From a virus (Duplodnaviria > Heunggongvirae > Uroviricota > Caudoviricetes), in IMG/VR virus record IMGVR_UViG_2541047852_000002: a stretch of DNA of 32,213 nt; one strand, 5' to 3'. Below, piece after piece: positions 9,219-29,971 of this stretch (position 1 is the stretch's first letter; the number at the start of each line of letters is the position of its first letter). Below the pieces are notes generated by a model, which had not been told where the DNA came from, did no database searches, and saw only the letters and a program-made list of their open reading frames with translations. A program made the translations under genes and the position numbers.

Positions 9219-10424
9219 ATGGCGGTTGATATTAAAGATGTCGAACAGGTCGCGCAGGAGCTGCAGCAGAAGTTTGACGACTTCAAAGCAAAGAACGACA
9301 AGCGCGTGGATGCGATTGAGCAGGAAAAAGGCAAACTTGCCGGGCAGGTGGAAACCCTGAACGGGAAACTCAGCGAGCTGGAAAACCTCAAAAGCGATCT
9401 TGAAAAAGAGCTGCTTGAGCTGAAACGTCCGGCAGGTGGTGCGCAAAATAAACTGGCCACCGAGCATAAAGAAGCGTTTGTGGGCTTCCTGCGTAAAGGC
9501 CGTGAAGATGGTCTGCGCGATCTGGAGCGCAAGGCATTGCAGGTGGGCACCGATGAAGACGGCGGCTATGCCGTGCCGGAAGCACTGGATCGCAACATTC
9601 TCACCCTGCTGAAAGATGAAGTGGTGATGCGCCAGGAAGCCACGGTGATCACCGTTGGTGGTTCCGACTACAAAAAACTGGTGAATCTGGGCGGCACGGC
9701 TTCCGGATGGGTTGGCGAGACTGACGCGCGCTCCCAGACTGCCACCTCAAAACTGGGCCTGATTGAACCTTTCATGGGGGAAATCTACGGTAACCCGCAG
9801 GCCACCCAGAAAATGCTGGATGATGCCTTTTTCAACGTGGAAGCATGGATCAACAGCGAGCTGGCAACCGAATTTGCCGAACAGGAAGAAATTGCCTTTA
9901 CCACCGGCGATGGTACCAAGAAGCCGAAAGGGTTCCTGGCGTATGAATCCACTGATGAAACCGATAAGGTCCGGGCGTTCGGCAAACTTCAGCATATTGT
10001 ATCCGGCGAAGCGACGGCGGTGACCGCAGACGCCATTATCAAACTGATTTACACGCTGCGTAAGGCACACCGCACTGGCGCGAAGTTCATGATGAACAAC
10101 AACAGCCTGTTTGCCATCCGTCTGCTTAAAGACAGCGAGGGTAACTATCTGTGGCGTCCGGGGCTGGAACTGGGGCAGCCGTCCTCTCTGGCGGGTTACG
10201 GTATCGCTGAAAACGAACAGATGCCGGATATCGCCGCTGATGCGAAAGCCATTGCATTTGGTAACTTCAAACGGGGTTACACCATCGTTGACCGTATCGG
10301 CACCCGCATTCTGCGTGACCCGTACACCAATAAACCGTTTGTCGGTTTTTATACCACCAAGCGCACCGGCGGGATGCTGGTCGATTCGCAGGCCATCAAA
10401 CTGCTGAAGATTGCAGCGGCGTAA
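9219..10424 (+). CDS. major capsid protein (HK97 fold) with N-terminal coiled-coil scaffold domain
   Basis: 401 aa; heptad-repeat N-terminus then capsid domain; SD present. Confidence 0.9.
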   Translation: MAVDIKDVEQVAQELQQKFDDFKAKNDKRVDAIEQEKGKLAGQVETLNGKLSELENLKSDLEKELLELKRPAGGAQNKLATEHKEAFVGFLRKGREDGLRDLERKALQVGTDEDGGYAVPEALDRNILTLLKDEVVMRQEATVITVGGSDYKKLVNLGGTASGWVGETDARSQTATSKLGLIEPFMGEIYGNPQATQKMLDDAFFNVEAWINSELATEFAEQEEIAFTTGDGTKKPKGFLAYESTDETDKVRAFGKLQHIVSGEATAVTADAIIKLIYTLRKAHRTGAKFMMNNNSLFAIRLLKDSEGNYLWRPGLELGQPSSLAGYGIAENEQMPDIAADAKAIAFGNFKRGYTIVDRIGTRILRDPYTNKPFVGFYTTKRTGGMLVDSQAIKLLKIAAA

Positions 10425-10473
10425 TCACTCAGGGGCGCGGAACCGCGCCCCCTGTTCTGACGGGTGAAGAATC

Positions 10474-10674
10474 ATGATCCTGAAACAAGATCTGAAATGG
10501 TCACCGGACGGTATGCGTGTTGAGGTCATTCGGGCCGGTGAGTATGACGATGGGGCGCTTCCTGCCCGGGTGCAGGAGATTGCACTTCAGGCCGGGTTAG
10601 CAGAGCGCGGAATCAGTGCAAAAAGCAGTAAAGCGGCAAAAGAGAAAAAAGCCACGACCAGTAAAGAGGGCTGA
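10474..10674 (+). CDS. hypothetical small head-associated protein
   Basis: 66-aa ORF between capsid and connector genes. Confidence 0.45.
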   Translation: MILKQDLKWSPDGMRVEVIRAGEYDDGALPARVQEIALQAGLAERGISAKSSKAAKEKKATTSKEG

Positions 10675-10676
10675 GT

Positions 10677-11000
10677 ATGCTTCTGACAATGGAAGAGATT
10701 AAAGCCCAACTCCGGCTGGATGAGGATTTCGATGCTGATGACCGCCATCTGCAACTGCTGGCCTGTGCGGCACAAAAGCGGACGGAAACGTATCTGAACC
10801 GGAAGCTCTATGCACCGGATGAAACCATTCCGGACAGCGATCCGGACGGGCTGCACCTGCCGGATGATATTCGTCTGGGGATGCTGATGCTTATCAGCCA
10901 TTTTTACGAAAACCGCTCGTCGGTTACGGAAGTGGAGAAACTCGACATGCCGCAGAGTTTTGGCTGGCTTGTCGGCCCGTACAGGTACTTTCCGCAATGA
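10677..11000 (+). CDS. head-tail connector protein (gp6-like)
   Basis: N-terminal EEIKAQLRLDEDFDADD motif typical of this family. Confidence 0.75.
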   Translation: MLLTMEEIKAQLRLDEDFDADDRHLQLLACAAQKRTETYLNRKLYAPDETIPDSDPDGLHLPDDIRLGMLMLISHFYENRSSVTEVEKLDMPQSFGWLVGPYRYFPQ

Positions 11001-11407
11001 AAATTCGTCAGGCGCAGACCAGCGCAACCTACATTCTGCCGGACCCCGGTGAACTGAATAAACGCGTCCTGATCCGCCTGCGGGTGGATATGCCCGCGGA
11101 TAACTTTGGCGTGGAGCCTCAATACCTGATTACGTTCCGGACATGGGCGAAGGTTATCCAGACCAGTGCCACCACCTGGCAGGAAACCGCGCAGACCGGG
11201 GACGCCATCACCCATTACATCACCATTCGTTACCGCCGGGGGATTACCGCTGATTATGAGGTGGTCTGCGGTGACAGTGTGTACCGGGTGAAACGTCAGC
11301 GCGATCTGAACGGGGCGCGGCGCTTTCTGCTGCTGGAGTGTACGGAGCTGGGCGAATGTAGGCAGAGTCACGGAGGCAACAATGACGACTTCCTTTTTGC
11401 ACGTTGA
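10997..11407 (+). CDS. head closure / head-tail adaptor protein
   Basis: Size and position in the connector module; overlapping stop/start. Confidence 0.6.
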   Translation: MKIRQAQTSATYILPDPGELNKRVLIRLRVDMPADNFGVEPQYLITFRTWAKVIQTSATTWQETAQTGDAITHYITIRYRRGITADYEVVCGDSVYRVKRQRDLNGARRFLLLECTELGECRQSHGGNNDDFLFAR

Positions 11408-17759: not shown

Positions 17760-18095
17760 GTGAAAAACACGGTTGACCTGCCAACGTGGGAAGAACTGAC
17801 CGACATTCGCGACACACTGAATACGGCAATTGATAAGGAGTTGTCCCGTACAACCAGTGATGTGCTGTTTCTGGCGCTGCGCCGGGTGAAAGCAGATCTG
17901 AATGCGGATATCAACACGCGCCTTGAACAGTCTGCACGGATCATTCAGCGCACACCGGATGAGGTTTTACCCGCGCTGGTGCTGGCGGCGACCTGGTTTG
18001 ATAACGCGGCGCGTGACGCGGACATTATCCGGCGTAATGCCATTACGCATCCCGGCTTTGTGCCGGTGATCCCTCTGAAGGTGCCAGTGCAATGA
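17760..18095 (+). CDS. probable C-terminal part of the DNA circularisation protein (same frame, downstream of amber codon)
   Basis: Same frame as 16725-17690 with no stop between 17691 and 17759. Confidence 0.5.
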   Translation: MKNTVDLPTWEELTDIRDTLNTAIDKELSRTTSDVLFLALRRVKADLNADINTRLEQSARIIQRTPDEVLPALVLAATWFDNAARDADIIRRNAITHPGFVPVIPLKVPVQ

Positions 18096-19171
18096 ACGAT
18101 AACGTCACGCTACGGGTAAATGGCCGGGAGTGGAATGGCTGGACATCGGTGCGCATCGGTGCCGGTATTGAACGGCTGGCGCGGGATTTCAGTGTGGAGA
18201 TCACCCGCCAGTGGCCGGGTGATGAGGGTATCACCACGCTTCAGCCGCGCATTAAAAACGGTTCAAAAGTGGAGGTGCTGATTGGTGATGAGCTGGTGAT
18301 CACCGGCTGGGTGGAGGCGACGCCCGTTCGTTACGATGCCCGTTCGGTCAGCACCGGTATTGCCGGACGCAGTCTGACCGCTGACCTGATTGACTGTGCA
18401 GCCGAACCGACACAGTTTAACGGACGATCGCTGGTACAGATTGCGCAGGCGCTTGCTGCGCCTTTCGGCATTGAGGTGGTGAACAACGGTGCGCCGTCGG
18501 GTGTTATTCCTGACGTCCAGCCCGATCACGGTGAAACGGTGATTGAGGTAATCAACAAAATACTCGGTCAGCAGCAGGCACTGGCTTACGACGACCCACA
18601 CGGCAGGCTGGTGATTGGCGGTATTGGCTCAACGCGGGCACATACTGCGCTGGTACTCGGGGAAAACATCCTTTCCTGCGATACGGAGAAGAGTATCCGG
18701 GAGCGGTTTTCTGTTTACCAGGTGGCGGGGCAGCGTGCTGGAAACGACGATGATTTCGGTGAGGCCACCACCAGCGCGCTGCGGGCCCGCACAGAGGACG
18801 CATTTATTGCCCGTTACCGTCCGATGTATATCAGGCAGACAGGGCAGGCTACGGGGGCAGGCTGTATTGCGCGTGCTGACTTTGAAGCCCGACAACGGGC
18901 GGCGCGGACGGATGAAACCACCTATGTGGTGCAGGGCTGGCGACAGGGTAACGGTACGCTGTGGCAGCCCAACCAGCGGGTGATTGTCTTCGATCCGGTC
19001 TGTGGTTTCGACAATACCGAACTGCTTGTCTCGGAAGTCACGTTTACTCAGGACCAGAACGGCACCCTGACGGAAATCCGTGTCGGCCCACCTGATGCTT
19101 ATCTGCCTGAACCCGAAGCCCCCGGCGCGCGGAAAAAGAAAAAAGCCAGAGTACAGGAGGACCCGTTCTGA
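18092..19171 (+). CDS. baseplate hub protein (Mu P / P2 gpD-like)
   Basis: 359 aa, position after circularisation protein. Confidence 0.75.
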   Translation: MNDNVTLRVNGREWNGWTSVRIGAGIERLARDFSVEITRQWPGDEGITTLQPRIKNGSKVEVLIGDELVITGWVEATPVRYDARSVSTGIAGRSLTADLIDCAAEPTQFNGRSLVQIAQALAAPFGIEVVNNGAPSGVIPDVQPDHGETVIEVINKILGQQQALAYDDPHGRLVIGGIGSTRAHTALVLGENILSCDTEKSIRERFSVYQVAGQRAGNDDDFGEATTSALRARTEDAFIARYRPMYIRQTGQATGAGCIARADFEARQRAARTDETTYVVQGWRQGNGTLWQPNQRVIVFDPVCGFDNTELLVSEVTFTQDQNGTLTEIRVGPPDAYLPEPEAPGARKKKKARVQEDPF

Positions 19172-19719
19172 TGAGTACGATTGAAGCCATGCAGCGACAA
19201 CTCCTCGGCCTGATTGGGCGGGCAGTGGTGAAAAGCATCAGTGCCGCCACGAAATGTCAGACCGTGGATGTGTCCCTGATTGCCGGTGAACCCAAAGCCG
19301 GGGTTGAACATCTTGAACCCTACGGTTTTACCGCAAGGGCAAACAGCGGTGCGGAAGCGGTGGTGTTGTTTCCGGATGGTGACCGTTCTCATGCGGTGGT
19401 TGTTACGGTGTCGGACCGGCGCTACCGCCTGAAAGGGCTGCAGACGGGTGAGGTGGCGGTCTATGACGATCAGGGGCAGTCTGTGACGCTGACCCGGGAG
19501 GGGATCGTGGTGGACGGTGCAGGTAAAACGATCACGTTTCGCAATGCACCTGAAGCACGTTTTGAAATGGACCTGGAAGTGACAGGACAGGTGAAAGACC
19601 TGTGCGACTCCAGCGGCACCACCATGTCAGCGATGCGGCTTGCCTATAACGGGCATCGTCACAGAGAGAACGGTCAGGGCAGTAACACCGACAAACCTGA
19701 TAAAGCGATGGAGGCATGA
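19171..19719 (+). CDS. baseplate assembly / spike protein V-like
   Basis: 182 aa, position. Confidence 0.7.
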   Translation: MSTIEAMQRQLLGLIGRAVVKSISAATKCQTVDVSLIAGEPKAGVEHLEPYGFTARANSGAEAVVLFPDGDRSHAVVVTVSDRRYRLKGLQTGEVAVYDDQGQSVTLTREGIVVDGAGKTITFRNAPEARFEMDLEVTGQVKDLCDSSGTTMSAMRLAYNGHRHRENGQGSNTDKPDKAMEA

Positions 19720-20144
19720 TGGAACTGTGGCTGACGGTGAACGGTAAACGCACCTGCGCCAGCGCACCGCTGGATCCGCTGACCCGCGCCGTGGTGATTT
19801 CCCTGTTTACCTGGCGGCGGGCGGAGCCTGATGACAACGCCGACGTCCCGATGGGATGGTGGGGGGATACCTGGCCTGCGGTACAGAATGACCGTTACGG
19901 CTCCCGACTGTGGCTGCTTCAGCGCAGCAAACTGACCAATCAGCTGGTGCAGACGGTAAGGGGGTATATCCGCGAATGCCTGCAATGGATGATTGATGAC
20001 GGCGTGGTGTCCCGTATTGATCTGGATATCCTCCGCACCGGGATTAATGAACTGGGTAACAGTATCACTCTCTGGCGTCGTGACGGACCGGTAATGATTT
20101 CTTTAGATGATCTGTGGAGTGCGATAACGCATGGCGGACAGTGA
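19716..20144 (+). CDS. baseplate wedge protein (GPW/gp25 family)
   Basis: 142 aa, position. Confidence 0.7.
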   Translation: MMELWLTVNGKRTCASAPLDPLTRAVVISLFTWRRAEPDDNADVPMGWWGDTWPAVQNDRYGSRLWLLQRSKLTNQLVQTVRGYIRECLQWMIDDGVVSRIDLDILRTGINELGNSITLWRRDGPVMISLDDLWSAITHGGQ

Positions 20145-21189
20145 ATTTCAGCGCCCGACGCTGGCAGAAAATATCAGTATGCTCCGTAACGATTTATTCG
20201 CCAGGCTGGACGTCAGCGACACGCTCCGGCGCATGGATGAAGACGTGCGGGCAAAGGTGTATGCGGCGGCGCTGCATACGGTTTACGGGTACATCGATTA
20301 TCTGGCAATGAACATGCTGCCTGACCTGTGCGATGAGTCCTGGCTGGCGCGACATGCTGCGATGAAACGGTGTCCGCGCAAGGGGGCCACGACTGCCAGC
20401 GGGTATATGCGCTGGGAAGGCGTCAGCGATGGCCTGAAGGTGACCGCCGGGAGTGTTATTCAGCGCGATGACCTGATTCAGTACACGGCAACTGCCGATG
20501 CAACCAGCGCCGGTGGTGTCCTGCGCGTGCCGATCGCCTGCTCAAGTGCAGGCGCGGTCGGTAACGCTGACGACGGTACGTCATTAATCCTGGTCACGCC
20601 GGTTAATGGTCTGCCGTCTTCCGGCGTGGCAGACACTCTGACAGGTGGATTTGATACTGAAGAGCTGGAAACGTGGCGCGCCCGCGTCATTGAGCGGTAT
20701 TACTGGACGCCTCAGGGCGGGGCTGACGGGGACTATGTTGTCTGGGCTAAAGAATTGCCCGGCATTACCCGCGCATGGGCATACCGTCACTGGATGGGAA
20801 CGGGGACTGTCGGTGTGATGATTGCCAGCAGTGACCTGATTAATCCCATTCCGGAAGAATCAACGGAAACGGCGGCAAGACAACATATCGGGCCACTGGC
20901 CCCGGTGGCAGGCTCTGATTTGTATGTGTTCAGGCCGGTGGCGCATACGGTGGATTTTCATATCCGTGTGACGCCGGATACACCGGAAATACGGGCTGCC
21001 ATCACCGCGGAGTTGCGTTCGTTCCTGCTGCGTGATGGTTATCCGCAGGGAGAACTGAAGGTGTCGCGTATCAGTGAAGCGATTTCCGGTGCGAACGGGG
21101 AATACAGCCATCAATTGCTTGCACCGGCGGAAAATATCTCCATTGCAAAAAATGAACTGGCGGTTCTGGGGACGATTTCATGGGCGTGA
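20131..21189 (+). CDS. baseplate J-like protein
   Basis: 352 aa, position. Confidence 0.75.
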
Positions 21190-21764
21190 CAAACGATGAT
21201 TACATCCGTCTGTTGTCGGCACTGCTGCCGCCCGGTCCGGCGTGGTCAGCCAGCGATCCGGCGATTGCCGGTGCGGCACAGTCATTAACCCGCGTTCATC
21301 AGCGTGCGGATGCCCTGATGCGGGAGCTGGATCCGCGCACCACCACCGAACTGATAAATCGCTGGGAGCGTCTGTGCGGCCTGCCGGATGAATGTATTCC
21401 CGCAGGAACACAGACCCTTCGCCAGCGTCAGCAACGACTGGATGCGAAGGTTAACCTGGCGGGCGGCATCAATGAGGATTTTTACCTTGCACAGCTTGCT
21501 GCCCTGGGCAGACCAGACGCCACCATCACGCGATACGACAAAAGCACGTTCACCTGCTCATCGGCCTGTACTGACGCGGTGAATGCGCCGGAATGGCGGT
21601 ATTACTGGCAGGTCAACATGCCAGCCGCCACCAACAGCACCTGGATGACATGTGGCGATCCCTGTGATTCCGCGCTGCGTATCTGGGGCGACACCGTCGT
21701 CGAATGTGTGCTTAACAAACTCTGCCCTTCGCATACCTACGTAATTTTTAAATATCCGGAGTAA
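21180..21764 (+). CDS. tail protein, Mu gp48 / e14 YmfQ-like (DUF2313)
   Basis: 194 aa, same length as e14 YmfQ as recalled; position before tail fibre. Confidence 0.65.
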
Positions 21765-21767
21765 TCC

Positions 21768-22511
21768 ATGCATCGTATAGACACGAAAACCGCGCAGAAG
21801 GATAAGTTCGGCGCGGGTAAGAACGGTTTTACCCGTGGTAACCCCCAGACAGGCACGCCTGCCACCGATCTGGATGATGACTACTTTGACATGTTGCAGG
21901 AAGAACTCTGCAGCGTGGTGGAGGCATCCGGTGCCAGTCTGGAGAAGGCGCGGCACGACCAGCTGCTTACCGCGCTTCGTGCGCTGCTGTTAAGCCGCAA
22001 GAATCCGTTTAGCGATATCAAATCGGACGGCACGGTGAAAACGGCTCTCGAAAACCTTGGTTTGGGAGAAGGCTCTGCATTACCTGTTGGTGTGCCTGTT
22101 CCATGGCCTTCAGCCACACCGCCAACAGGCTGGCTGAAATGCAACGGTGCGGCTTTTTCTGCTGAAGAATACCCGGAACTGGCAAAGGCTTATCCGACAA
22201 ATAAATTGCCTGATTTACGTGGTGAGTTTATTCGTGGCTGGGATGATGGGCGCGGCGTTGATTCAAGGCGTGCGGTGCTGTCAACACAAGAGCCAACTGT
22301 AGGTACTTTTTATGTGGAGCTAGCTATCATCTCGGGAACTTTGAGCGGCTCAGGTGCTAAATTTACCGATTCAGTAGGGATTGGATCAACCAGTAGTAAC
22401 ATTACCGTTAGCAACGGTAATGACCAGTCCGTGTCGGGTACAGTGGCCGTTAACCCCGTCGATACCCGTCCACGCAACATTGCATTTAACTATATCGTGA
22501 GAGCAGCATAA
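21768..22511 (+). CDS. tail fibre protein; constant N-terminus fused to invertible C-terminal segment at the crossover site near 22057
   Basis: Crossover site encodes LENLGLGEG in frame. Confidence 0.85.
22045..22070 (+). repeat. Gin/Pin/Hin-type 26-bp recombination site, left
   Basis: Imperfect palindrome CTCTCGAAAACC-TT-GGTTTGGGAGAA; shares the 15-mer TTGGTTTGGGAGAAG in inverted orientation with 23971-23985. Confidence 0.75.
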
Positions 22512-23113
22512 TGGATAAAGCAATATTAAATAGTGGACTTGTTGCTACAAAGGCAGGGGATATTACCGTTTATAACTATGATGGTGAAACTCGGGAATAT
22601 ATTTCCACTTCAAGTGAATATCTTGCCGTTGGTGTTGGTATCCCGGCATATTCCTGTCTGGATGCACCAGGTATACATAAGGCGGGTTATGCTATCTGTC
22701 GTTCTGTGAATTTAAATTCATGGGAATATGTGCCAGACCATCGCGGTGAAATCGTCTATAACACCGAAACGGGAGAATCAAAACAAATCACAGCACCGGG
22801 TGATTACCCCGAAAATACAACCACTATTGCCCCATTAACGCCATACGATAAATGGGATGGTGAGAAATGGGTGACCGATACTGAGGCACAGCATAGCGCC
22901 GCAGTAGACGCGGCAGAAGCACAGCGTCAGTCACTGATTGATGCTGCAATGGCTTCCATCGGTCTGATTCAGCTGAAATTACAGGCCGGACGGAAGCTGA
23001 TGCAGGCAGAAACAACCCGGCTTAACGCTGTGCTGGATTACATTGACGCGGTGACGGCAACAAATACCAGCACAGCGCCGGATGTCATCTGGCCTGAACT
23101 GCCGGAGGCGTAG
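22511..23113 (+). CDS. tail fibre assembly protein (currently expressed orientation)
   Basis: 200 aa, follows fibre gene. Confidence 0.85.
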   Translation: MDKAILNSGLVATKAGDITVYNYDGETREYISTSSEYLAVGVGIPAYSCLDAPGIHKAGYAICRSVNLNSWEYVPDHRGEIVYNTETGESKQITAPGDYPENTTTIAPLTPYDKWDGEKWVTDTEAQHSAAVDAAEAQRQSLIDAAMASIGLIQLKLQAGRKLMQAETTRLNAVLDYIDAVTATNTSTAPDVIWPELPEA

Positions 23114-23528
23114 GCCATTCAATATCTGGCGCACAGGAAGTATCGACCAGTTCCAGTGCGTCCAGATAATCCAGCCACGAATTATATTGCGCCAGTTCCT
23201 CGCCTTTCAGACGACCAATAGCAGCTTTGCCAGGCCACTGATGGGTATTGATGTAGGTATTGACTTCTGAAACCAAAGATATTTTTTTCATTTCAGCCGT
23301 CAACACCTCATCCTCTTTTGAAGGGGGTGGGGAATTAATCCATACTGGCCGTCCTGAACTGTCAGCGCCAATTTCTTTCCCTTCTGGATGCAGACCAAGA
23401 AATTGCTCATATGTTTCTCTGGTAATTTCAATAACATCATCAGGAAGCGTTCCCGCATCCTCATATTCTGGAAACAATTCTTGCAGATAAAAACTTTTAC
23501 TTCCGGGTGAAAAGAATACTGAGTTCAT
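23085..23528 (-). CDS. alternative tail fibre assembly protein (silent orientation)
   Basis: Convergent with the expressed copy inside the invertible segment. Confidence 0.8.
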   Translation of the reverse strand: MNSVFFSPGSKSFYLQELFPEYEDAGTLPDDVIEITRETYEQFLGLHPEGKEIGADSSGRPVWINSPPPSKEDEVLTAEMKKISLVSEVNTYINTHQWPGKAAIGRLKGEELAQYNSWLDYLDALELVDTSCAPDIEWPTPPAVQAR

Positions 23529-23530
23529 TA

Positions 23531-23984
23531 TTACCGTCCAATGATTAACGCTGAGACGCTGGTATCTGAAGGAAAGGCTGCATTCAGTGGTTTGTCGACT
23601 TTGAACACAATCGTATTATTCCCCCTGACAGCGGCAAAAGAACAAACCGCCGTCGCGTATGAACCTGTAATATTACTGGATACACCACCATAAGCTGTTG
23701 TTGATACCAGAGGGATAACGCCCAGCACCTTATTAGGAAATACAAAGGGCAATGTGGCTGTGGCAATATAAGACTTATTAGAACCTGTGATGGCATAAGC
23801 ATTATCAGTCATTCCATTCATCGCCACTGGGCCGCTTATACTTACAGTAACCATCTGAATGATTAGCCCGTCAGGTTGACGAATCACAAAATTTCCATTG
23901 CCACCAGTAACCGTCCAGAAAGACATATCAGGGATTTGGTTTTCCCCGTTGCCCACATTCCGTTTTGCCGCTTCTCCCAAACCA
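23531..23984 (-). CDS. alternative tail fibre C-terminal segment (no own start; fused to constant region after inversion)
   Basis: Reads in frame through the second crossover site as NVGLGEAAK. Confidence 0.75.
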
Positions 23985-23997
23985 ACGTTTATGAAAA
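23972..23997 (-). repeat. Gin/Pin/Hin-type 26-bp recombination site, right (inverted)
   Basis: Inverted copy of the left site; just upstream of the invertase gene remnant. Confidence 0.75.
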
Positions 23998-24051
23998 TGC
24001 AGAAATAACGAGCAAATGGCATCATTCCTGCTTTTGTCAGGGAGATCTACC

Positions 24052-24180
24052 ATGCTTATTGGCTATGTACGTGTGTCAACAAATGACCAGAACACAGATC
24101 TACAACGTAATGCGCTGAACTGTGCAGGATGCGAGCTGATTTTTGAAGACAAGATAAGCGGTACAAAGTCCGAGACCTAG
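24052..24180 (+). pseudogene. pin: DNA invertase (serine recombinase, Pin/Gin/Hin family), truncated after 42 codons
   Basis: MLIGYVRVSTNDQNTDLQRNAL... is the conserved invertase N-terminus including the catalytic Ser region; frame ends at TAG 24178-24180 where similarity stops. Confidence 0.85.
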
Positions 24181-24275
24181 GGCTGACACTGCTGTTCTTG
24201 ATGCAAATTAAAGTATTTAATAGTGAGTAGCGGCCTTACTAATGTAAGGCCACTATAATCATTTTATTAATTGCA

Positions 24276-26168
24276 TTAATCGTGTTTTGGCCATACTTTC
24301 AATGCAATTTCCCCCAACTTTTTACCCCGCTCCAGGATTTCATCCTCATCCCATTTATCCTTAACTATAAGTGGAATGTTCAGTCGTAGATTGGTGTGGA
24401 CGATGAGAGCATCACGTTTTTTCAGAAATACAGCATTCTGAACAGAACGGTTTACGCTAAGGTTAAGCAAAGTTAGATTTCCCAAAGTAGATATCGCTTG
24501 TTGCCGTTTCCTTACCAGTAGCTGTTCAGGGGTAAGATCGGTTCCAGACAGAACAATTTGGTTCAATACCGTAGCATCTGAATTTGTCACCATACGACCA
24601 TTTTCGAGAGGCCAACAGGAATACCAACTTTGAGGCATAAGATGATCGATATCGAGATTAGAAAGATTTGGAACATCAGGCTTTTCTGTCTTTACTTGGC
24701 GACAAAGTTCTCTTTCAAGTTCCGTTAACATTGAGCGCATTTTCGGTGCGTCGAGCCTGCCAGGATAAAGTGGAGCATTGATGCAAGCGTTGAGAAATTC
24801 TGAGTCACCAGGCCAACGTGAGGCTTCGCCATTTAAGTTATTGAGGATATTACGTAACTCAACACTGGAAATTTCCGTTTTAGCCAAGTGCCGCAATACA
24901 TTCATAAATACATTGTTGTAATTCTTTGGCGTCAGGCCACATACGGCTCTTCGTACTACGTAGGAGACAAGATCATTATACATGGCTGCTTTCTCATCAT
25001 CAGCGATGTTAGCTATCGAAATGAACAAAGCAAGCGGATAAAGTGTCGTCACATCATAGTCTGCGATGCGATATCCAAAGTGTGAGATGGGGGTTGTGCC
25101 AAAACCATCAACCAATTCTTTATATTGTGATGCATATTGTTTGAGGCGCTTTACTTGCAGATCTGCTCGTTGTGAAGACAAGTCCTTACTTACATAATCA
25201 CGATACTCATTGTAAAGGCGAGACAGATCAATTTCACGTTGCCTTTCTGATTGCAATGTCGCATGTACTAGCCACTCCATGCGTGGTTTATTAATACGTC
25301 CACGGCGTTGTTTTTCCGACCAGTATTTATCTTCAAAGCTCTTCCACTCATTTTCATATAATTCAATAGCATTAATATTTTCATGCTCAGCGCACATAAA
25401 GATATAGTTGCGAATAAGATCCGTAGCATGAAGTTCCGCCCCTCGCCCATTTAATGTTTCAAAAATTATTTGGGCATCATCTTCAGCTTCGAGAAATATG
25501 CTTACCAGTTTCAGATCTGTTAAGACAGCCTCAATTAGAGCTACAGCATTTTCTTGTGGTGAGTGGTTTTCTATTTTAATCCATTTTATAAAGGCTTCAG
25601 TAAAAAAACATAATGCTTCTAGTGATGGCGGGTGATTAAAATGCTTACGCAACGTACCATGCTGCGTGAAACTATCAGAGAATACGTCCCGGAGATCGTC
25701 AATATTTTCAACATTAAAACTTTGAATAAAATGAGTTTGATCCCGAAAAGTTGGCCACAGTTTGAAGCGTTCTACTTCTTTATTTCGCATTGTGTCTTCG
25801 TTTGAGTTTTTCAGGCAAGGCGAAATGAGAGCCTCTAAGCTGGAAAGATCCGTAGCACGTAATGCTAATCGGATGGATGCCAGAACATATTGAAGAGTGG
25901 TCAATCGTTGCTGACCATCAATAATATGTATGGAATCTACACCTAATAATCCTTTTTTTGATTGAGGTTCCAGTACAACCGCACCAAGGAAATGGGGAGT
26001 TGGTTTTGTACCCGAGAGCCGGGATTGTACTTTCTCTAGGATATCCTCCAGTAGAGCTGACCACTGGTCTTGCTGAGTCCATACATAGGCACGTTGATAG
26101 AATGGAACACAGTATTGTCGGCGGTCTTGAAAAAGTTGTTGGACAGTTAGCGTCTCGGATTTCATGGT
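24276..26168 (-). CDS. GmrSD-like type IV (modification-dependent) restriction endonuclease, DUF262 + DUF1524
   Basis: N-terminal DUF262 motifs (FYQRAYVW, DGQQRLTTL); C-terminal His-Me finger motifs (DIDHLMPQS, GNLTLLNLSVNRSVQN). Likely start ATG at 26168; track ORF extends to 26225. Confidence 0.85.
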   Translation of the reverse strand, partial: TMKSETLTVQQLFQDRRQYCVPFYQRAYVWTQQDQWSALLEDILEKVQSRLSGTKPTPHFLGAVVLEPQSKKGLLGVDSIHIIDGQQRLTTLQYVLASIRLALRATDLSSLEALISPCLKNSNEDTMRNKEVERFKLWPTFRDQTHFIQSFNVENIDDLRDVFSDSFTQHGTLRKHFNHPPSLEALCFFTEAFIKWIKIENHSPQENAVALIEAVLTDLKLVSIFLEAEDDAQIIFETLNGRGAELHATDLIRNYIFMCAEHENINAIELYENEWKSFEDKYWSEKQRRGRINKPRMEWLVHATLQSERQREIDLSRLYNEYRDYVSKDLSSQRADLQVKRLKQYASQYKELVDGFGTTPISHFGYRIADYDVTTLYPLALFISIANIADDEKAAMYNDLVSYVVRRAVCGLTPKNYNNVFMNVLRHLAKTEISSVELRNILNNLNGEASRWPGDSEFLNACINAPLYPGRLDAPKMRSMLTELERELCRQVKTEKPDVPNLSNLDIDHLMPQSWYSCWPLENGRMVTNSDATVLNQIVLSGTDLTPEQLLVRKRQQAISTLGNLTLLNLSVNRSVQNAVFLKKRDALIVHTNLRLNIPLIVKDKWDEDEILERGKKLGEIALKVWPKHD

Positions 26169-26520
26169 ATACCTGTAAGCGACATTGTACAAAAGTGAGG
26201 AGTTAATCTGATTTAGAACAATCATTTTATTTTGCTATGATACAACGTATTTGTTACCGATTAAGTAAAAAACGCGTCTGAACGCTGACGTTTTAGGGCT
26301 TTACTGGTTATTCTTTCTTATCTCTTCATCATCCCATCGGCATCCTGTCGAGGTTGTTGACTTGTTGTTATTTATTTTGTCTAGGCGCTGTTTAATTATT
26401 ATTGATAGAATTGATGGTGAGAGGTGATTGAAACCGTAGGCACGTCGTTTGCAAGGACGTGCTACGACTGGCTGGTGAACTTCCGATAGTGCGAGTATTG
26501 AATGATTTCCTACGTGCTAA

Positions 26521-26768
26521 CTAGTGAACAAACAACTCTTCAGTAGACTCTCAGGTATCATTCAGAGTTTCCTGAACGAAAGTTTTAGCTCAATCTTTAT
26601 CTGCAGTATGTCTAACTGAAAAACTATCGTTGCTGGTGGCTTTTACGATCATCTCCACATCGTCATAACGCTTGCCAATGTGTTGGGTTAATTCTTCCTT
26701 TAACGCGTCCACAGCGCCGTTTGGCATTTGGTCATTTTGTCTTTGGCTATGGAGATCTCAATACGCAT
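26521..26768 (-). pseudogene. dinI-family (DNA-damage-inducible protein I-like) pseudogene
   Basis: [14 protein letters not shown] then, after a 1-nt shift, [45 protein letters not shown], an in-frame TGA, AKTFVQETLNDT and a second TGA; matches the DinI pattern recalled from memory. Confidence 0.6.
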
Positions 26769-26968
26769 AACACTTCTTTTGTACTGCGTTTGTAGACAGT
26801 ATTATTCTTATCTGTGTAAATAAACAGTATCAAGACTTCGTTTTAGCTGCATAAGAAAAAAGAGATGGATACATTCGGAAAGATTTTGATGGTGGTAGGC
26901 TAAGTGAATAGCCTAAAGGTGTTTTACCCCAATTATTCCCCGGTATTTCTCCGCATAAAAAACAATCA

Positions 26969-26995
26969 TAAAAAAACCAGCCATAATAGGCTGGT
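26969..26995 (-). terminator. rho-independent terminator immediately 3' of the tRNA-Pro fragment
   Basis: Minus-strand stem ACCAGCC/GGCTGGT with loop TATTAT followed by T7. Confidence 0.65.
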
Positions 26996-27009
26996 TCTTA
27001 AGGGATTTT

Positions 27010-27055
27010 TGGTCGGCACGAGAGGATTTGAACCTCCGCCCCCCGACACCCCATG
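27010..27055 (-). other. 3' fragment (about 45 nt, T-arm to CCA) of a tRNA-Pro (proL-like) gene; probable integration-site core (att junction)
   Basis: Minus strand reads CATGGGGTGTCGGGGGGCGGAGGTTCAAATCCTCTCGTGCCGACCA; the 5' half is degenerate and cannot form an acceptor stem or D-arm. proL sequence recalled from memory. Confidence 0.65.
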
Positions 27056-27165
27056 ATGGCGAGCTACGATCTTAAGGGCTGTTATGTGCCAGAAACAGAG
27101 ATTTTTATATTCCTCACTCTGGAAATCATAATGCTAACTAGTAGGGATTATAAGTTGTCAATTGA

Positions 27166-27990
<825 letters not shown>

Positions 27991-28200
27991 TTTCGGAATG
28001 GAACTGGATTTCATATTGTGGTCAATTTTCGCACATGATGAGAGAGAGCCCGCGATAGTTGGCTCTTTTGTGCAAAGTCTGACCAATATTTATTCCCCTC
28101 ACTGGACGTTACACTCAGACTATCCACTGCTGACATGCCAGTGATTTAAAAGGAATGCTGCTGATTTAAATAGCGAAAACTTCACTAAAGAGGATGTAAA

Positions 28201-28494
28201 ATGACACTACCCAAGTTCAGGAATGACCTACAAGTTGAAGCTAATTACTCTATCAATCAAGCCCGTGAAATGGTTGGGAAAACGGTGAAATCTGTCCAGA
28301 TTGGTTTTCAGAAAACTGGAGTACAGGTTCATCAGACTGAAATGCTAATCATCACGTTTACAGATGACACTCAACTTGCCATCTCAACAGGTTCAAACGT
28401 TGTAAACATAACGTCGTTAATTGGGCGTGGTGGCAGTTGCGAGCTTAAGCCTGCGGATTTTCACGTAGATTTTGATTTGACCTGGCAAAGATGA
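28201..28494 (+). CDS. hypothetical small protein (97 aa)
   Basis: Strong SD (AAAGAGGA) upstream of ATG; followed by hairpin terminator. Confidence 0.6.
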   Translation: MTLPKFRNDLQVEANYSINQAREMVGKTVKSVQIGFQKTGVQVHQTEMLIITFTDDTQLAISTGSNVVNITSLIGRGGSCELKPADFHVDFDLTWQR

Positions 28495-28500
28495 CAAATC

Positions 28501-28556
28501 CGGCCGTGCCAGCGGCCTTTTTCATGCTCGTCCTGCTGGCACGGCCGCAAACCTAA
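28501..28556. terminator. bidirectional terminator between convergent genes
   Basis: GGCCG/CGGCC hairpin plus T5 on the plus strand; longer inverted repeat CGGCCGTGCCAGC/GCTGGCACGGCCG serving the minus strand. Confidence 0.6.
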
Positions 28557-28757
28557 TCCTGTAAGGTGACACTTAAGCGTGTCAGAACTGCGCAATAACA
28601 ACCTTCACTTTTCCTTCCGCGTCTTTAGATTCCAGATCGGTTTTCACGCCCAAAGGATTATTTATGTAGCAATCCGGGTCATATACAAACAAGATCAACG
28701 TATTGAACCGCCCCGGGAATCCTGGAGACTAAACTTCCTGAGAAAGAGGTAAACAGG

Positions 28758-29084
28758 ATGACTAAAAATACTCGTTTTTCCCCCGAAGTCCGTCAACGGG
28801 CAGTCCGTATGGTTCTGGAAAGTCAGAGCGAATATGACTCACAATGGGCGACAATTTGTTCCATTGCTCCAAAGATTGGCTGTACGCCGGAGACTCTGCG
28901 TGTCTGGGTTCGCCAGCATGAGCGGGATACCGGGGGCGGTGATGGAGGGCTCACCACCGCTGAACGTCAGCGTCTGAAAGAGCTGGAACGTGAAAATCGT
29001 GAACTGCGCCGCAGTAACGATATCCTTCGCCAGGCTTCCGCTTATTTTGCGAAGGCGGAGTTCGACCGCCTCTGGAAAAAATGA
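28758..29084 (+). CDS. IS3-family transposase OrfA
   Basis: Identical to 888-1214. Confidence 0.93.
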
Positions 29085-29971
29085 TGCCACTGCTGGATAA
29101 GCTGCGTGAGCAGTACGGGGTCGGACCGCTATGCAGCGAACTGCATATTGCCCCGTCAACGTATTACCACTGTCAGCAACAGCGACATCATCCGGATAAA
29201 CGCAGTGCCCGTGCGCAGCGCGATGACTGGCTGAAGAAAGAGATACAGCGCGTATACGATGAAAATCACAAGGTATACGGTGTGCGTAAAGTCTGGCGTC
29301 AGTTGTTACGGGAAGGTATCAGAGTGGCCAGATGCACTGTGGCACGTCTCATGGCGGTTATGGGACTTGCCGGTGTTCTCCGGGGTAAAAAGGTCCGTAC
29401 GACCATCAGCCGGAAAGCCGTTGCCGCAGGCGACCGCGTAAACCGTCAGTTCGTGGCAGAACGACCTGACCAGCTGTGGGTGGCTGATTTTACTTACGTC
29501 AGCACATGGCGGGGCTTCGTCTATGTGGCGTTCATCATTGATGTGTTTGCCGGATACATCGTGGGGTGGCGGGTCTCATCGTCCATGGAAACGACATTCG
29601 TGCTGGATGCACTGGAGCAGGCGTTATGGGCCCGTCGACCGTCCGGCACGGTCCATCACAGTGATAAAGGTTCTCAGTATGTATCGCTGGCCTACACACA
29701 GCGGCTTAAGGAAGCCGGATTACTGGCATCAACAGGAAGTACAGGCGACTCGTATGACAACGCGATGGCGGAGAGCATCAATGGTCTTTACAAAGCGGAG
29801 GTAATACACCGTAAGAGCTGGAAAAACCGTGCAGAAGTGGAACTGGCCACACTCACGTGGGTGGACTGGTATAACAATCGACGATTGCTGGAAAGGCTGG
29901 GCCATACTCCTCCGGCAGAAGCAGAAAAAGCTTATTATGCTTCCATCGGAAACGATGATCTGGCAGCCTGA
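29081..29971 (+). CDS. IS3-family transposase OrfB
   Basis: Identical to 1-891; A6 run at 29076-29081 at the OrfA/OrfB overlap. Confidence 0.93.

Follow-up and report, generated by a model that had tools for sequence, protein, structure and literature searches.

The restriction gene in the window (the whole 32,213-nt stretch of viral DNA analyzed here) is the already characterized EcoUTI89GmrSD, a known enzyme sitting in a known kind of prophage defense hotspot. Taken as a whole, the following account is very probably right: EcoUTI89GmrSD is prophage cargo, one acquisition clipped the neighboring invertase gene, the resulting unit spread by recombination, the slot that it occupies is a defense hotspot, and the adjoining tail-fiber switch is now inverted in trans. 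The window itself would include the attachment-site-proximal cargo region of an e14/SfII-like contractile-tail prophage at ssrA in an ST95-type E. coli, and it contains the following features.

21768..22511, plus strand: tail-fiber gene as now assembled, 247 aa (open reading frame; Pfam Collar domain; annotated in UTI89 as phage tail protein)
22052..23990, unstranded: invertible P-type segment, bounded by 20-nt pix inverted repeats at 22052-22071 and 23971-23990
22511..23113, plus strand: tail-fiber assembly gene (tfaE-like), partner of the expressed fiber (Pfam Caudo_TAP, 4e-30; UTI89 annotation)
23085..23528, minus strand: alternative tail-fiber assembly gene, in the silent orientation (Pfam Caudo_TAP, 6e-28; UTI89 annotation)
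23531..24025, minus strand: alternative fiber C-terminal cassette, silent here (Pfam Gp53-like_C, E = 5e-05, at 24.2 bits slightly below the 24.9-bit Pfam cutoff)
24052..24180, plus strand: pin', what is left of a serine invertase gene of the Pin/Gin family (40 Pin codons followed by Thr and a stop)
24173..24275, unstranded: junction and spacer from pin' to the gmrSD 3' end, 103 nt, where homology to e14 pinE stops
24276..26165, minus strand: gmrSD, a single-chain type IV modification-dependent restriction enzyme, 629 aa (UTI89_C2960; WP_000834402.1)
26166..26509, unstranded: upstream (promoter) region traveling with gmrSD (homology between gmrSD copies)
26551..26768, minus strand: DinI-like pseudogene with a frameshift and an internal stop (UTI89 annotation; DinI matches)
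27217..27990, plus strand: PD-T4-3, a GIY-YIG single-gene anti-T-even defense (PADLOC PD-T4-3, 8.6e-137, full length; Pfam LEM-3_GIY-YIG)

A reading made earlier from the sequence alone had called a GmrSD-like DUF262/DUF1524 gene here, and the call is confirmed: the gene is intact, the DNA of the window from 21700 to 28600, gmrSD included, is 100% identical to that of UTI89, and the protein matches Pfam GmrSD_N (PF03235, DUF262; 7.2e-34, residues 28-276 of the 649-aa open reading frame), Pfam GmrSD_C (PF07510, DUF1524; 3.8e-20), and, end to end, the PADLOC mREase_IV model (1415 bits). Only the gene end given at that time, 26168, needs moving by 3 nt, to 26165; an in-frame ATG further upstream, at 26225, is an alternative start and gives the 649-aa form. 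The DGQQR nucleotide-binding motif of the GmrSD family lies at residue 83 of the 629-aa protein, and D507, H508, and N522 (the DH...N residues of a His-Me-finger nuclease) are all present, at the positions that the retrieved passages of PMC4437046 report as essential in Eco94GmrSD. Among solved structures, a search with the protein returned one distant DUF262 protein (9jfl, 3.5e-08).

The same passages (PMC4437046) describe UTI89_C2960 as a fused GmrSD, 93% identical to Eco94GmrSD, that is prophage-borne directly after tail-fiber genes and that restricts T2, T6, and other T-even-like phages, not T4, with IPI* having no effect on it. The activity on modified DNA that had been anticipated for the window gene is thus already documented, in so far as those passages go, by an identical protein that restricts T2 and T6. 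Judging from the published work on EcoUTI89GmrSD and the 93%-identical Eco94GmrSD, the product would be an NTP-stimulated His-Me-finger nuclease that cuts hydroxymethyl- or glucosyl-hydroxymethyl-cytosine DNA, which would account for T-even exclusion (T2 and T6, not T4). The observation, a known enzyme carried as defense cargo by an e14-like prophage at its end, is correct but largely ordinary, and since the enzyme, its activity, and its prophage location beside tail-fiber genes are already published, little changes on that side. At the DNA level, gmrSD was found in 0 records of a 50,697-genome phage collection, in which the DinI-like part alone was matched.

The invertase gene beside it is a stub. 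pin' runs from an ATG at 24052 to a TAG at 24178-24180, and codons 1-40 of its 42 are identical to K-12 PinE; its match to Pfam Resolvase (2.9e-09) spans profile positions 2-48 of 145, a PinE tblastn query recovers residues 1-44 only, and RefSeq labels the locus a recombinase pseudogene with a missing C terminus. A complete serine invertase has a catalytic domain of ~140 aa and a C-terminal helix-turn-helix, of which residues 1-40 are left here, so that two earlier statements, that the invertase had been cut to 42 codons and that the switch has no cis-encoded recombinase, both stand. Over its first 121 nt, pin' matches intact pinE genes of three other prophages, at their 5' end, with 100% identity. 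Alignment with e14 locates the breakpoint, as had been suggested: homology to pinE DNA stops at window position 24173 (pin nt 122) and, in the F344 copy, at pin nt 136. In the PT62 and F344 copies, which lack the frameshift, possible residual invertase homology past codon 41 came to 5 matches in 20 residues and was judged insignificant, which places the junction at pin nt 122-136.

What was replaced can be read from F344, whose pin'-gmrSD unit belongs to a prophage located at icd, the e14 site. Because homology to K-12 e14 is lost at pin nt 136 and picked up again at the icd attR, the replaced interval is exactly the pin 3' end plus mcrA, which bears out the proposal that gmrSD occupies the slot held by mcrA in e14. 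In alignment, one and the same pin'/gmrSD junction is shared by the window, PT62, F344, and S1-INA in differing neighborhoods; the spacer is 95% identical in all four prophage contexts, the gmrSD modules diverge by up to 10% at the DNA level, and the window protein is 93% identical to the Eco94GmrSD-type variants of F344 and PT62. Homology upstream of gmrSD extends to 26376 in comparison with F344 and to 26509 in comparison with PT62 and S1-INA, and pin' and gmrSD occur together as one place in 296 genomes. The spacer also contains a 10-bp stem-loop (24230-24253) that can be read from the sequence and that a terminator scan did not call.

This pattern points to a single acquisition. In a single illegitimate event, gmrSD would have come into the phage family and displaced the part of the invertase gene that follows about codon 41-45, and the pin'-spacer-gmrSD unit would then have spread among related prophages through homologous recombination, with its left crossover in the conserved pin 5' end, the pix site, or the tail-fiber region. 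The clipping of pin thus appears to be an old, shared event, and the idea that acquisition clipped the invertase survives in amended form: the common junction and the intact pin genes beside other cargo favor it as a description of the ancestor, not of something that happened in this prophage. It could be argued instead that the truncation was an unrelated deletion that came after gmrSD was already in place, in which case the acquisition clipped nothing, and acquisition and deletion are indeed inseparable in present-day sequences, since every copy descends from the clipped form. We consider a later deletion improbable, because the intermediate that it predicts, an intact pin followed by the same gene (the arrangement named beforehand as counting against the proposal), was found in 0 of 5,426 complete E. 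coli genomes when the pinE 3' end joined to the gmrSD 3' end was used as the query; because all four contexts have the junction and the 103-nt spacer in common; and because every sampled relative with other cargo (10 of 10) has an intact pin.

The borders of the element bear on whether gmrSD is phage cargo at all. In UTI89, a 43-kb island is flanked by two copies of a repeat made up of the ssrA 3' end and ~150 nt more, with the integrase at the far end. PD-T4-3 is a second cargo gene in the end region of the window, and its family also lies directly after an intact pinE in the prophages of O157, M8, and STS63-1-E. PADLOC gave no match for two low-GC open reading frames in the left part of the window or, in UTI89, for the three genes that separate the integrase from the far attachment site, and Rfam and tRNA scans of the region returned nothing above threshold. 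A 3' fragment of tRNA-Pro is present at about 27011-27062, which indicates that the cargo region is itself mosaic and that parts of it may derive from another element.

That fragment could also be taken to mean that gmrSD and its neighbors are the remains of a separate ssrA-adjacent island that merely abuts the prophage, as could the absence of an integrase on the gmrSD side, the low GC content (38-46%, versus 54-59% in the structural genes), and a homolog in Enterobacteriaceae bacterium B14 (78% identical) that lies near mltC and an integrase fragment without a pin remnant. A separate island is nevertheless very improbable, as the entire interval falls between the direct repeats of ssrA at the borders of the 43-kb element, and as the fusion of gmrSD to pin' recurs without exception in three further prophage contexts, one of them the icd-bounded e14-type prophage of F344.

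With gmrSD read as prophage cargo, the slot can be compared among relatives. In a sample of 14 loci (a sample, not a census, with defense assignments by PADLOC), it holds mcrA (twice), PD-T4-3 (four times), a PD-T4-6-like kinase, Ppl, PDC-S15, PDC-M66AB, gmrSD, or, in one case, nothing. A single position between conserved phage genes is thus filled with unrelated genes that mostly match defense models, in agreement with the earlier suggestion of a cargo hotspot where defense genes are swapped. The interval from the invertase gene to the phage end would then be a general defense-cargo hotspot of the e14/SfII-like phage family. The papers searched contain no description of a slot between the tail-fiber invertase gene and the attachment site; as a defined hotspot, it can be mined across the ~2,400 E. 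coli genomes that carry pin.

The tail-fiber switch to the left of the slot has its two inverted crossover sites in place around alternative fiber/chaperone cassettes. The 247-aa fiber gene consists of a constant N-terminal part up to pixL and a C-terminal part within the invertible segment, and the 15-nt pix core common to the repeats, TTGGTTTGGGAGAAG, recurs unchanged in e14 and in those sampled relatives that were scanned, and it matches the published repeat of the e14 P segment (PMC12529663). Strain IHE3034 differs from the window solely by an exact inversion, with flanks 100% identical; each repeat arm has a polymorphic base that remains with the flank outside it, which puts the breakpoints within the pix core. 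The flipped IHE3034 locus uses the 23531..24025 cassette as the 3' part of its fiber gene and so assembles an alternative 247-aa fiber, both versions being intact. Orientation is polymorphic within lineages: in the ST95 lineage (at least 99.8% identity), 78 genomes have the window orientation and 23 are flipped, and in the F344-type lineage, the orientations split into 23 genomes (99.8-100% among the matches listed) and 5 genomes (99.5-100%).

The switch thus appears, from these comparisons, to go on flipping without a recombinase of its own in two pin'-gmrSD lineages. The contrary view, that it is dead and that the orientations are old polymorphisms, assembly artifacts, or rare RecA events, can take comfort from the DNA search that found no intact invertase in several carrier chromosomes, yet it is very unlikely, since the truncation is older than the split of the gmrSD lineages while both orientations occur in each of two lineages at 99.5-100% identity, O1:K1:H7-labeled ST95 strains differ among themselves (APEC O1 is flipped, APEC E16002 and E18006 are not), the breakpoints fall exactly in a 15-nt core too short for efficient RecA recombination, and each state is found in both Sanger-era and long-read genomes.

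A living switch needs a source of invertase, and near-identical loci in both orientations within pin'-gmrSD lineages, with the crossover in the pix core, imply one acting in trans. Inversion would occur occasionally, by a Pin-family invertase from another prophage or an incoming phage. E. coli has many genes of this family, two types of which were counted in 1,146 and 863 genomes. Trans inversion has been seen with the e14 P segment, which PinQ flips while sharing just 38% identity with PinE (PMC12529663), and in CEA212U an intact invertase is encoded by a P2-like prophage that sits in tandem at ssrA. The sequence-only reading had called for a search of the genome for such an enzyme, and with blastn for pin-like DNA this search came back empty for the SCU-116 and MS20673 chromosomes, examined as the window's own genome type, which show the pin' remnant only; some flipped strains, e.g., PMV-1 and GN06489, likewise gave no pin-like DNA besides pin'. 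With a chimeric query (the pin'+gmrSD anchor plus the pinE 3' end), which counts places and conveys neither location nor integrity, one pin-like place per chromosome was found in SCU-116, MS20673, S88, and PMV-1 and two in UTI89 and IHE3034. A pin fragment in N51 was set aside as uninformative, being just a 168-nt internal remnant in another island.

The stub may matter to the switch as DNA. In the Hin system, the Fis enhancer lies ~100 bp from the hix site (PMC3798978), and pin' spans +68 to +189 from the center of pixR, covering the position expected from that geometry, so it would be expected to include the region of the predicted enhancer. The switch retains both pix sites, both fiber and chaperone cassettes, and the pin 5' part, which would carry the putative Fis enhancer. 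In a per-segment comparison across lineages, identity is 92.6-95.9% for pin', 95% for the spacer, and 93-97% for gmrSD; pin' is conserved no better than the other two, so the sequences give no evidence of its retention by selection. We regard as unlikely the more ambitious proposal that the stub amounts to a retained pixR plus Fis enhancer, leaving an orphan switch that only the invertases of co-resident or superinfecting phages can flip, possibly as part of a three-layer anti-T-even island. In e14, inversion yields a chimeric Stf protein that blocks T2 adsorption. If the proposal were true and the Stf block applied here, the three layers would be receptor block, GmrSD, and PD-T4-3, the first of them triggered by foreign recombinases. 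A switch that changes orientation in natural populations without its own recombinase would in any event be a natural case of reliance on trans invertases, and such dependence bears on host-range switching and on the recently reported Stf-based block of T2 adsorption.

Among known systems, the window protein is the same as the UTI89 enzyme, with no protein difference, and shares the DUF262 NTPase and DUF1524 HNH domains of EcoUTI89GmrSD, Eco94GmrSD, and CT596 GmrS/GmrD. A search of PMC4437046 found the word "invertase" nowhere, and its retrieved passages do not touch on the clipping of the invertase gene, on the correspondence to the mcrA slot, or on the adjoining PD-T4-3. K-12 e14 (pinE-mcrA) has the same inversion module and pix core, a pin gene whose 5' 121 nt are 97.5% identical to those of the window, and likewise, in the interval from the invertase gene to the phage end, a type IV HNH restriction gene. 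It differs in that McrA belongs to an unrelated family, targets 5-methylcytosine, and is transcribed in the same direction as pin, whereas gmrSD in the window converges on pin; in that the window pin has lost everything after about codon 41; and in its attachment site, icd for e14 versus ssrA for the window prophage. The gin-mom right end of phage Mu likewise places an accessory gene for DNA modification/restriction between the tail-fiber invertase gene and the genome end, although in Mu gin is intact and Mom modifies DNA to counter restriction.

The P2 and P4 hotspots (Rousset 2022, Vassallo 2022) likewise show differing defense systems at a fixed position with conserved phage flanks in related prophages; here the phage family is e14/SfII-like, and the slot lies between the tail-fiber invertase gene and the attachment site. 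The closest parallel to the proposed trans inversion is the flipping of the e14 P segment, which has the same repeat core, by PinQ, an invertase from another prophage (Kirigo et al., NAR 2025; PMC12529663). K-12, however, also has a cis-encoded PinE; the window prophage has lost the cis gene and would have to rely wholly on foreign invertases for inversion.

An intact GmrSD-like gene does lie beside a clipped invertase, as the sequence-only reading had noticed: the ORF listing, Pfam, the comparison with PinE, and the inverted repeats all confirm it, the gene being as described except that it starts at 26165 and not at 26168.

Features of the window
1780-2115, plus strand: low-GC (~35%) ORF of 111 aa in the late region; matches phrog_13663, function unknown
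3898-4401, minus strand: low-GC (~35%) ORF of 167 aa in the late region, on the opposite strand between the lysis and HNH/terminase genes
18092-24025: baseplate and tail-fibre block of Mu/e14 type (ORF listing and Pfam scans)
24052-24180, plus strand: pin', an ORF of 42 codons matching the N-terminal end of the Resolvase domain
24276-26165, minus strand: gmrSD, with GmrSD_N (DUF262) and GmrSD_C (DUF1524) domains (Pfam)
26551-26768, minus strand: DinI-like pseudogene with a frameshift and an internal stop, directly upstream of gmrSD
~27011-27062, minus strand: tRNA-Pro-like 3' fragment of ~50 nt, between the dinI pseudogene and PD-T4-3
27217-27990, plus strand: full-length PD-T4-3 (GIY-YIG) gene (PADLOC, 8.6e-137)
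28201-28494, plus strand: ORF of 97 aa between PD-T4-3 and the nuclease-domain gene
28582-28703 and 30014-30683: DpnII/MboI-like nuclease-domain gene, split by an inserted IS3-family element
28704-30013: the IS3-family element, which splits the 3' end of that gene and is absent from the UTI89 arrangement
30727-32051: IS2, ~35-45 nt upstream of the start of the nuclease-domain gene, an insertion relative to UTI89

The gene at 24276-26165 is an already characterised enzyme, given that its protein matches the PADLOC model mREase_IV end to end (1415 bits), carries the motifs DGQQR at residue 83 and D507-H508-N522, and corresponds to UTI89_C2960 of He et al. (2015). That paper (PMC4437046) describes a single-chain GmrSD with 93% identity to Eco94GmrSD that is not inhibited by the T4 inhibitor IPI* and restricts T2 and T6 along with other T-even-like phages, T4 excepted; it also places Eco94GmrSD, UTI89GmrSD, and the APEC O1 homologue in prophages, directly after tail-fibre genes. 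UTI89 has only one close copy of gmrSD, and the gene is present in about 300 of the 5,426 complete E. coli genomes.

Between 21700 and 28600 the window agrees at 100% identity with ST95-type E. coli genomes, among them UTI89, S88, and NU14, and its right end, with the two IS insertions, exactly matches strains SCU-116, MS20673, and Eco_23-2678. The structural genes have a GC content of 54-59%, which drops to 38-46% from ~22500 on. The UTI89 copy of the element is a prophage of 43 kb whose two ends carry a direct repeat made of the ssrA 3' end and ~150 further nt. Its integrase lies at the far end, and genes for head, tail, and lysis form a complete set in between, which makes the stretch between pin' and ssrA the cargo region next to the attachment site. 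Between the UTI89 integrase and the far ssrA repeat (42614-44484 of the UTI89 locus) are three further genes, one of them encoding a STAS-like domain, which puts cargo on both sides of the attachment site; PADLOC gave no match for them. The two low-GC late-region ORFs, for which Pfam and PADLOC likewise gave no match, may be uncharacterised morons, and the UTI89 RefSeq record has no CDS at the position of the one at 3898-4401.

Residues 1-40 of pin' are identical to K-12 PinE and are followed by Thr and a stop. Alignment of the window with K-12 e14 gave 95% identity from pixR, the right crossover site of the tail-fibre switch (23971-23990), to pin nucleotide 122, with no homology beyond. The junction and its 103-nt spacer recur in three further contexts: PT62, where the pin'-gmrSD unit adjoins a P4-like integrase; S1-INA-02-B, which has lost the left part of the switch through IS1; and F344, where the prophage carrying the unit occupies the icd site of e14. 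A deletion of 1 nt, by comparison with PT62 and F344, ends the ORF of the window at 42 codons; the pin' frames of those two continue for ~20 unrelated codons. Homology between F344 and K-12 e14 ends at pin nucleotide 136 and restarts exactly at the icd attR, so that the interval replaced is precisely the pin 3' end plus mcrA; this bears out the proposal that gmrSD occupies the mcrA slot. The junction is old, since the gmrSD modules sharing it differ by 3-10% in DNA and 4-7% in protein among the four contexts.

The truncation would be an unrelated deletion if relatives carried an intact pin followed by the same gene. A query joining the 3' 429 nt of pinE, the spacer, and the 3' end of gmrSD found the pinE and gmrSD parts adjacent in 0 of 5,426 complete E. 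coli genomes (best coverage, 55%), and pin' plus gmrSD occurs as a single contiguous place in 296 of them. The parsimonious reading, though not a provable one, is that gmrSD arrived and pin was clipped in a single event.

The switch itself is not frozen. The 20-nt inverted repeats at 22052-22071 and 23971-23990 flank two opposed sets of fibre C-terminus and chaperone genes, as expected of a Pin-type invertible segment spanning 22052-23990, and each fibre version is an intact ORF of 247 aa. When the sequence expected after inversion was built and matched to genomes, 23 carried it at full length with 99.8-99.9% identity (including IHE3034, APEC O1, and PMV-1), against 78 in the window orientation. 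IHE3034 is 100% identical to the window in both flanks and differs solely by the exact inversion of the segment; the lone base that differs between the repeat arms keeps to the outer flank, which places the crossover inside the 15-nt core TTGGTTTGGGAGAAG, the published repeat of the e14 P segment (PMC12529663). This core is invariant among the relatives scanned. Both orientations also occur in the F344-type lineage, with 23 genomes versus 5 (identities among the matches listed, 99.8-100% and 99.5-100%, respectively). Because the truncation is older than the ST95 and F344-type lineages, their flips occurred without a cis-encoded Pin.

The enhancers of Hin, Gin, and Cin lie in the first ~100 coding nucleotides. 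The pin' stub spans +68 to +189 from the centre of pixR and covers the enhancer position of Hin, ~100 bp from the hix site (PMC3798978); it may thus contain a Fis enhancer and might have been kept because of it. The stub of the window matches the 5' end of live pinE genes at 100% identity; compared between lineages, it is conserved no more highly than the spacer, a pattern that recombination in the region would fit as well as selection.

A precedent for action in trans is the inversion of the e14 segment by PinQ (PMC12529663), which has only 38% identity to PinE, and Pin-family invertase genes are common in E. coli. In the genome type of the window, blastn, which would miss an invertase as distant as PinQ, found no pin-like DNA other than pin' in the chromosome records of SCU-116 and MS20673, plasmids being filed as separate records. 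In CEA212U, a P2-like prophage in tandem at ssrA (7500-11049 of the CEA212U locus), adjoining the same e14-like prophage, has an intact Pin-family invertase next to its tail-fibre genes, a natural candidate for the trans-acting source.

The cargo of the window comprises gmrSD, the dinI pseudogene, PD-T4-3, and the nuclease-domain gene. PD-T4-3, a validated anti-T-even defence gene, is two positions from gmrSD, which sets two independent anti-T-even systems side by side; in CEA212U it is truncated by an IS3-family element. Many Stx and lambdoid phages have intact dinI genes at similar end positions. The nuclease-domain gene, which also matches the PADLOC Aga_Helical-REase model (7e-21), is probably inactivated in this strain because two IS elements have hit it, and Pfam, PHROGs, and PADLOC all gave no match for the 97-aa ORF. 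The tRNA-Pro-like fragment, which we take to be proM-like, received no tRNA call from ARAGORN; PT62 and S1-INA have a stretch 74% similar to it just past their gmrSD modules, and the fragment may be the scar of an old attachment site, a sign that the cargo region is mosaic.

The slot between pin and the phage end was sampled in ten e14-like prophages with intact pinE by reading the genes directly downstream, with defence assignments by PADLOC.

Genes directly 3' of intact pinE
K-12 and JB2: mcrA
Two O157:H7 prophages, M8, and STS63-1-E: PD-T4-3 GIY-YIG gene, followed in M8 by a PD-T4-6-like kinase
TOE3: FRG-domain protein matching PDC-S15
UPEC_U013: split Ppl (PHP + ATPase)
UTAK-5: HipA-like kinase and DUF3037 pair matching PDC-M66AB
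FDAARGOS_1287: slot empty

These differing contents, together with those of the window, support the proposal that defence genes are swapped here. In the O157:H7, M8, and STS63-1-E prophages the PD-T4-3 family gene is oriented opposite to that of the window.

In sum, the initial observation is confirmed and its interpretation supported. Both the enzyme at its centre and the kind of location are already known. What our results add is modest: the shared junction, the exact equivalence to mcrA in the e14 site, a hotspot for defence genes after pin, and an orphan switch that still flips. The slot after pin is a further example of the same kind as the prophage hotspots of P2 and P4 (PMC9519451).
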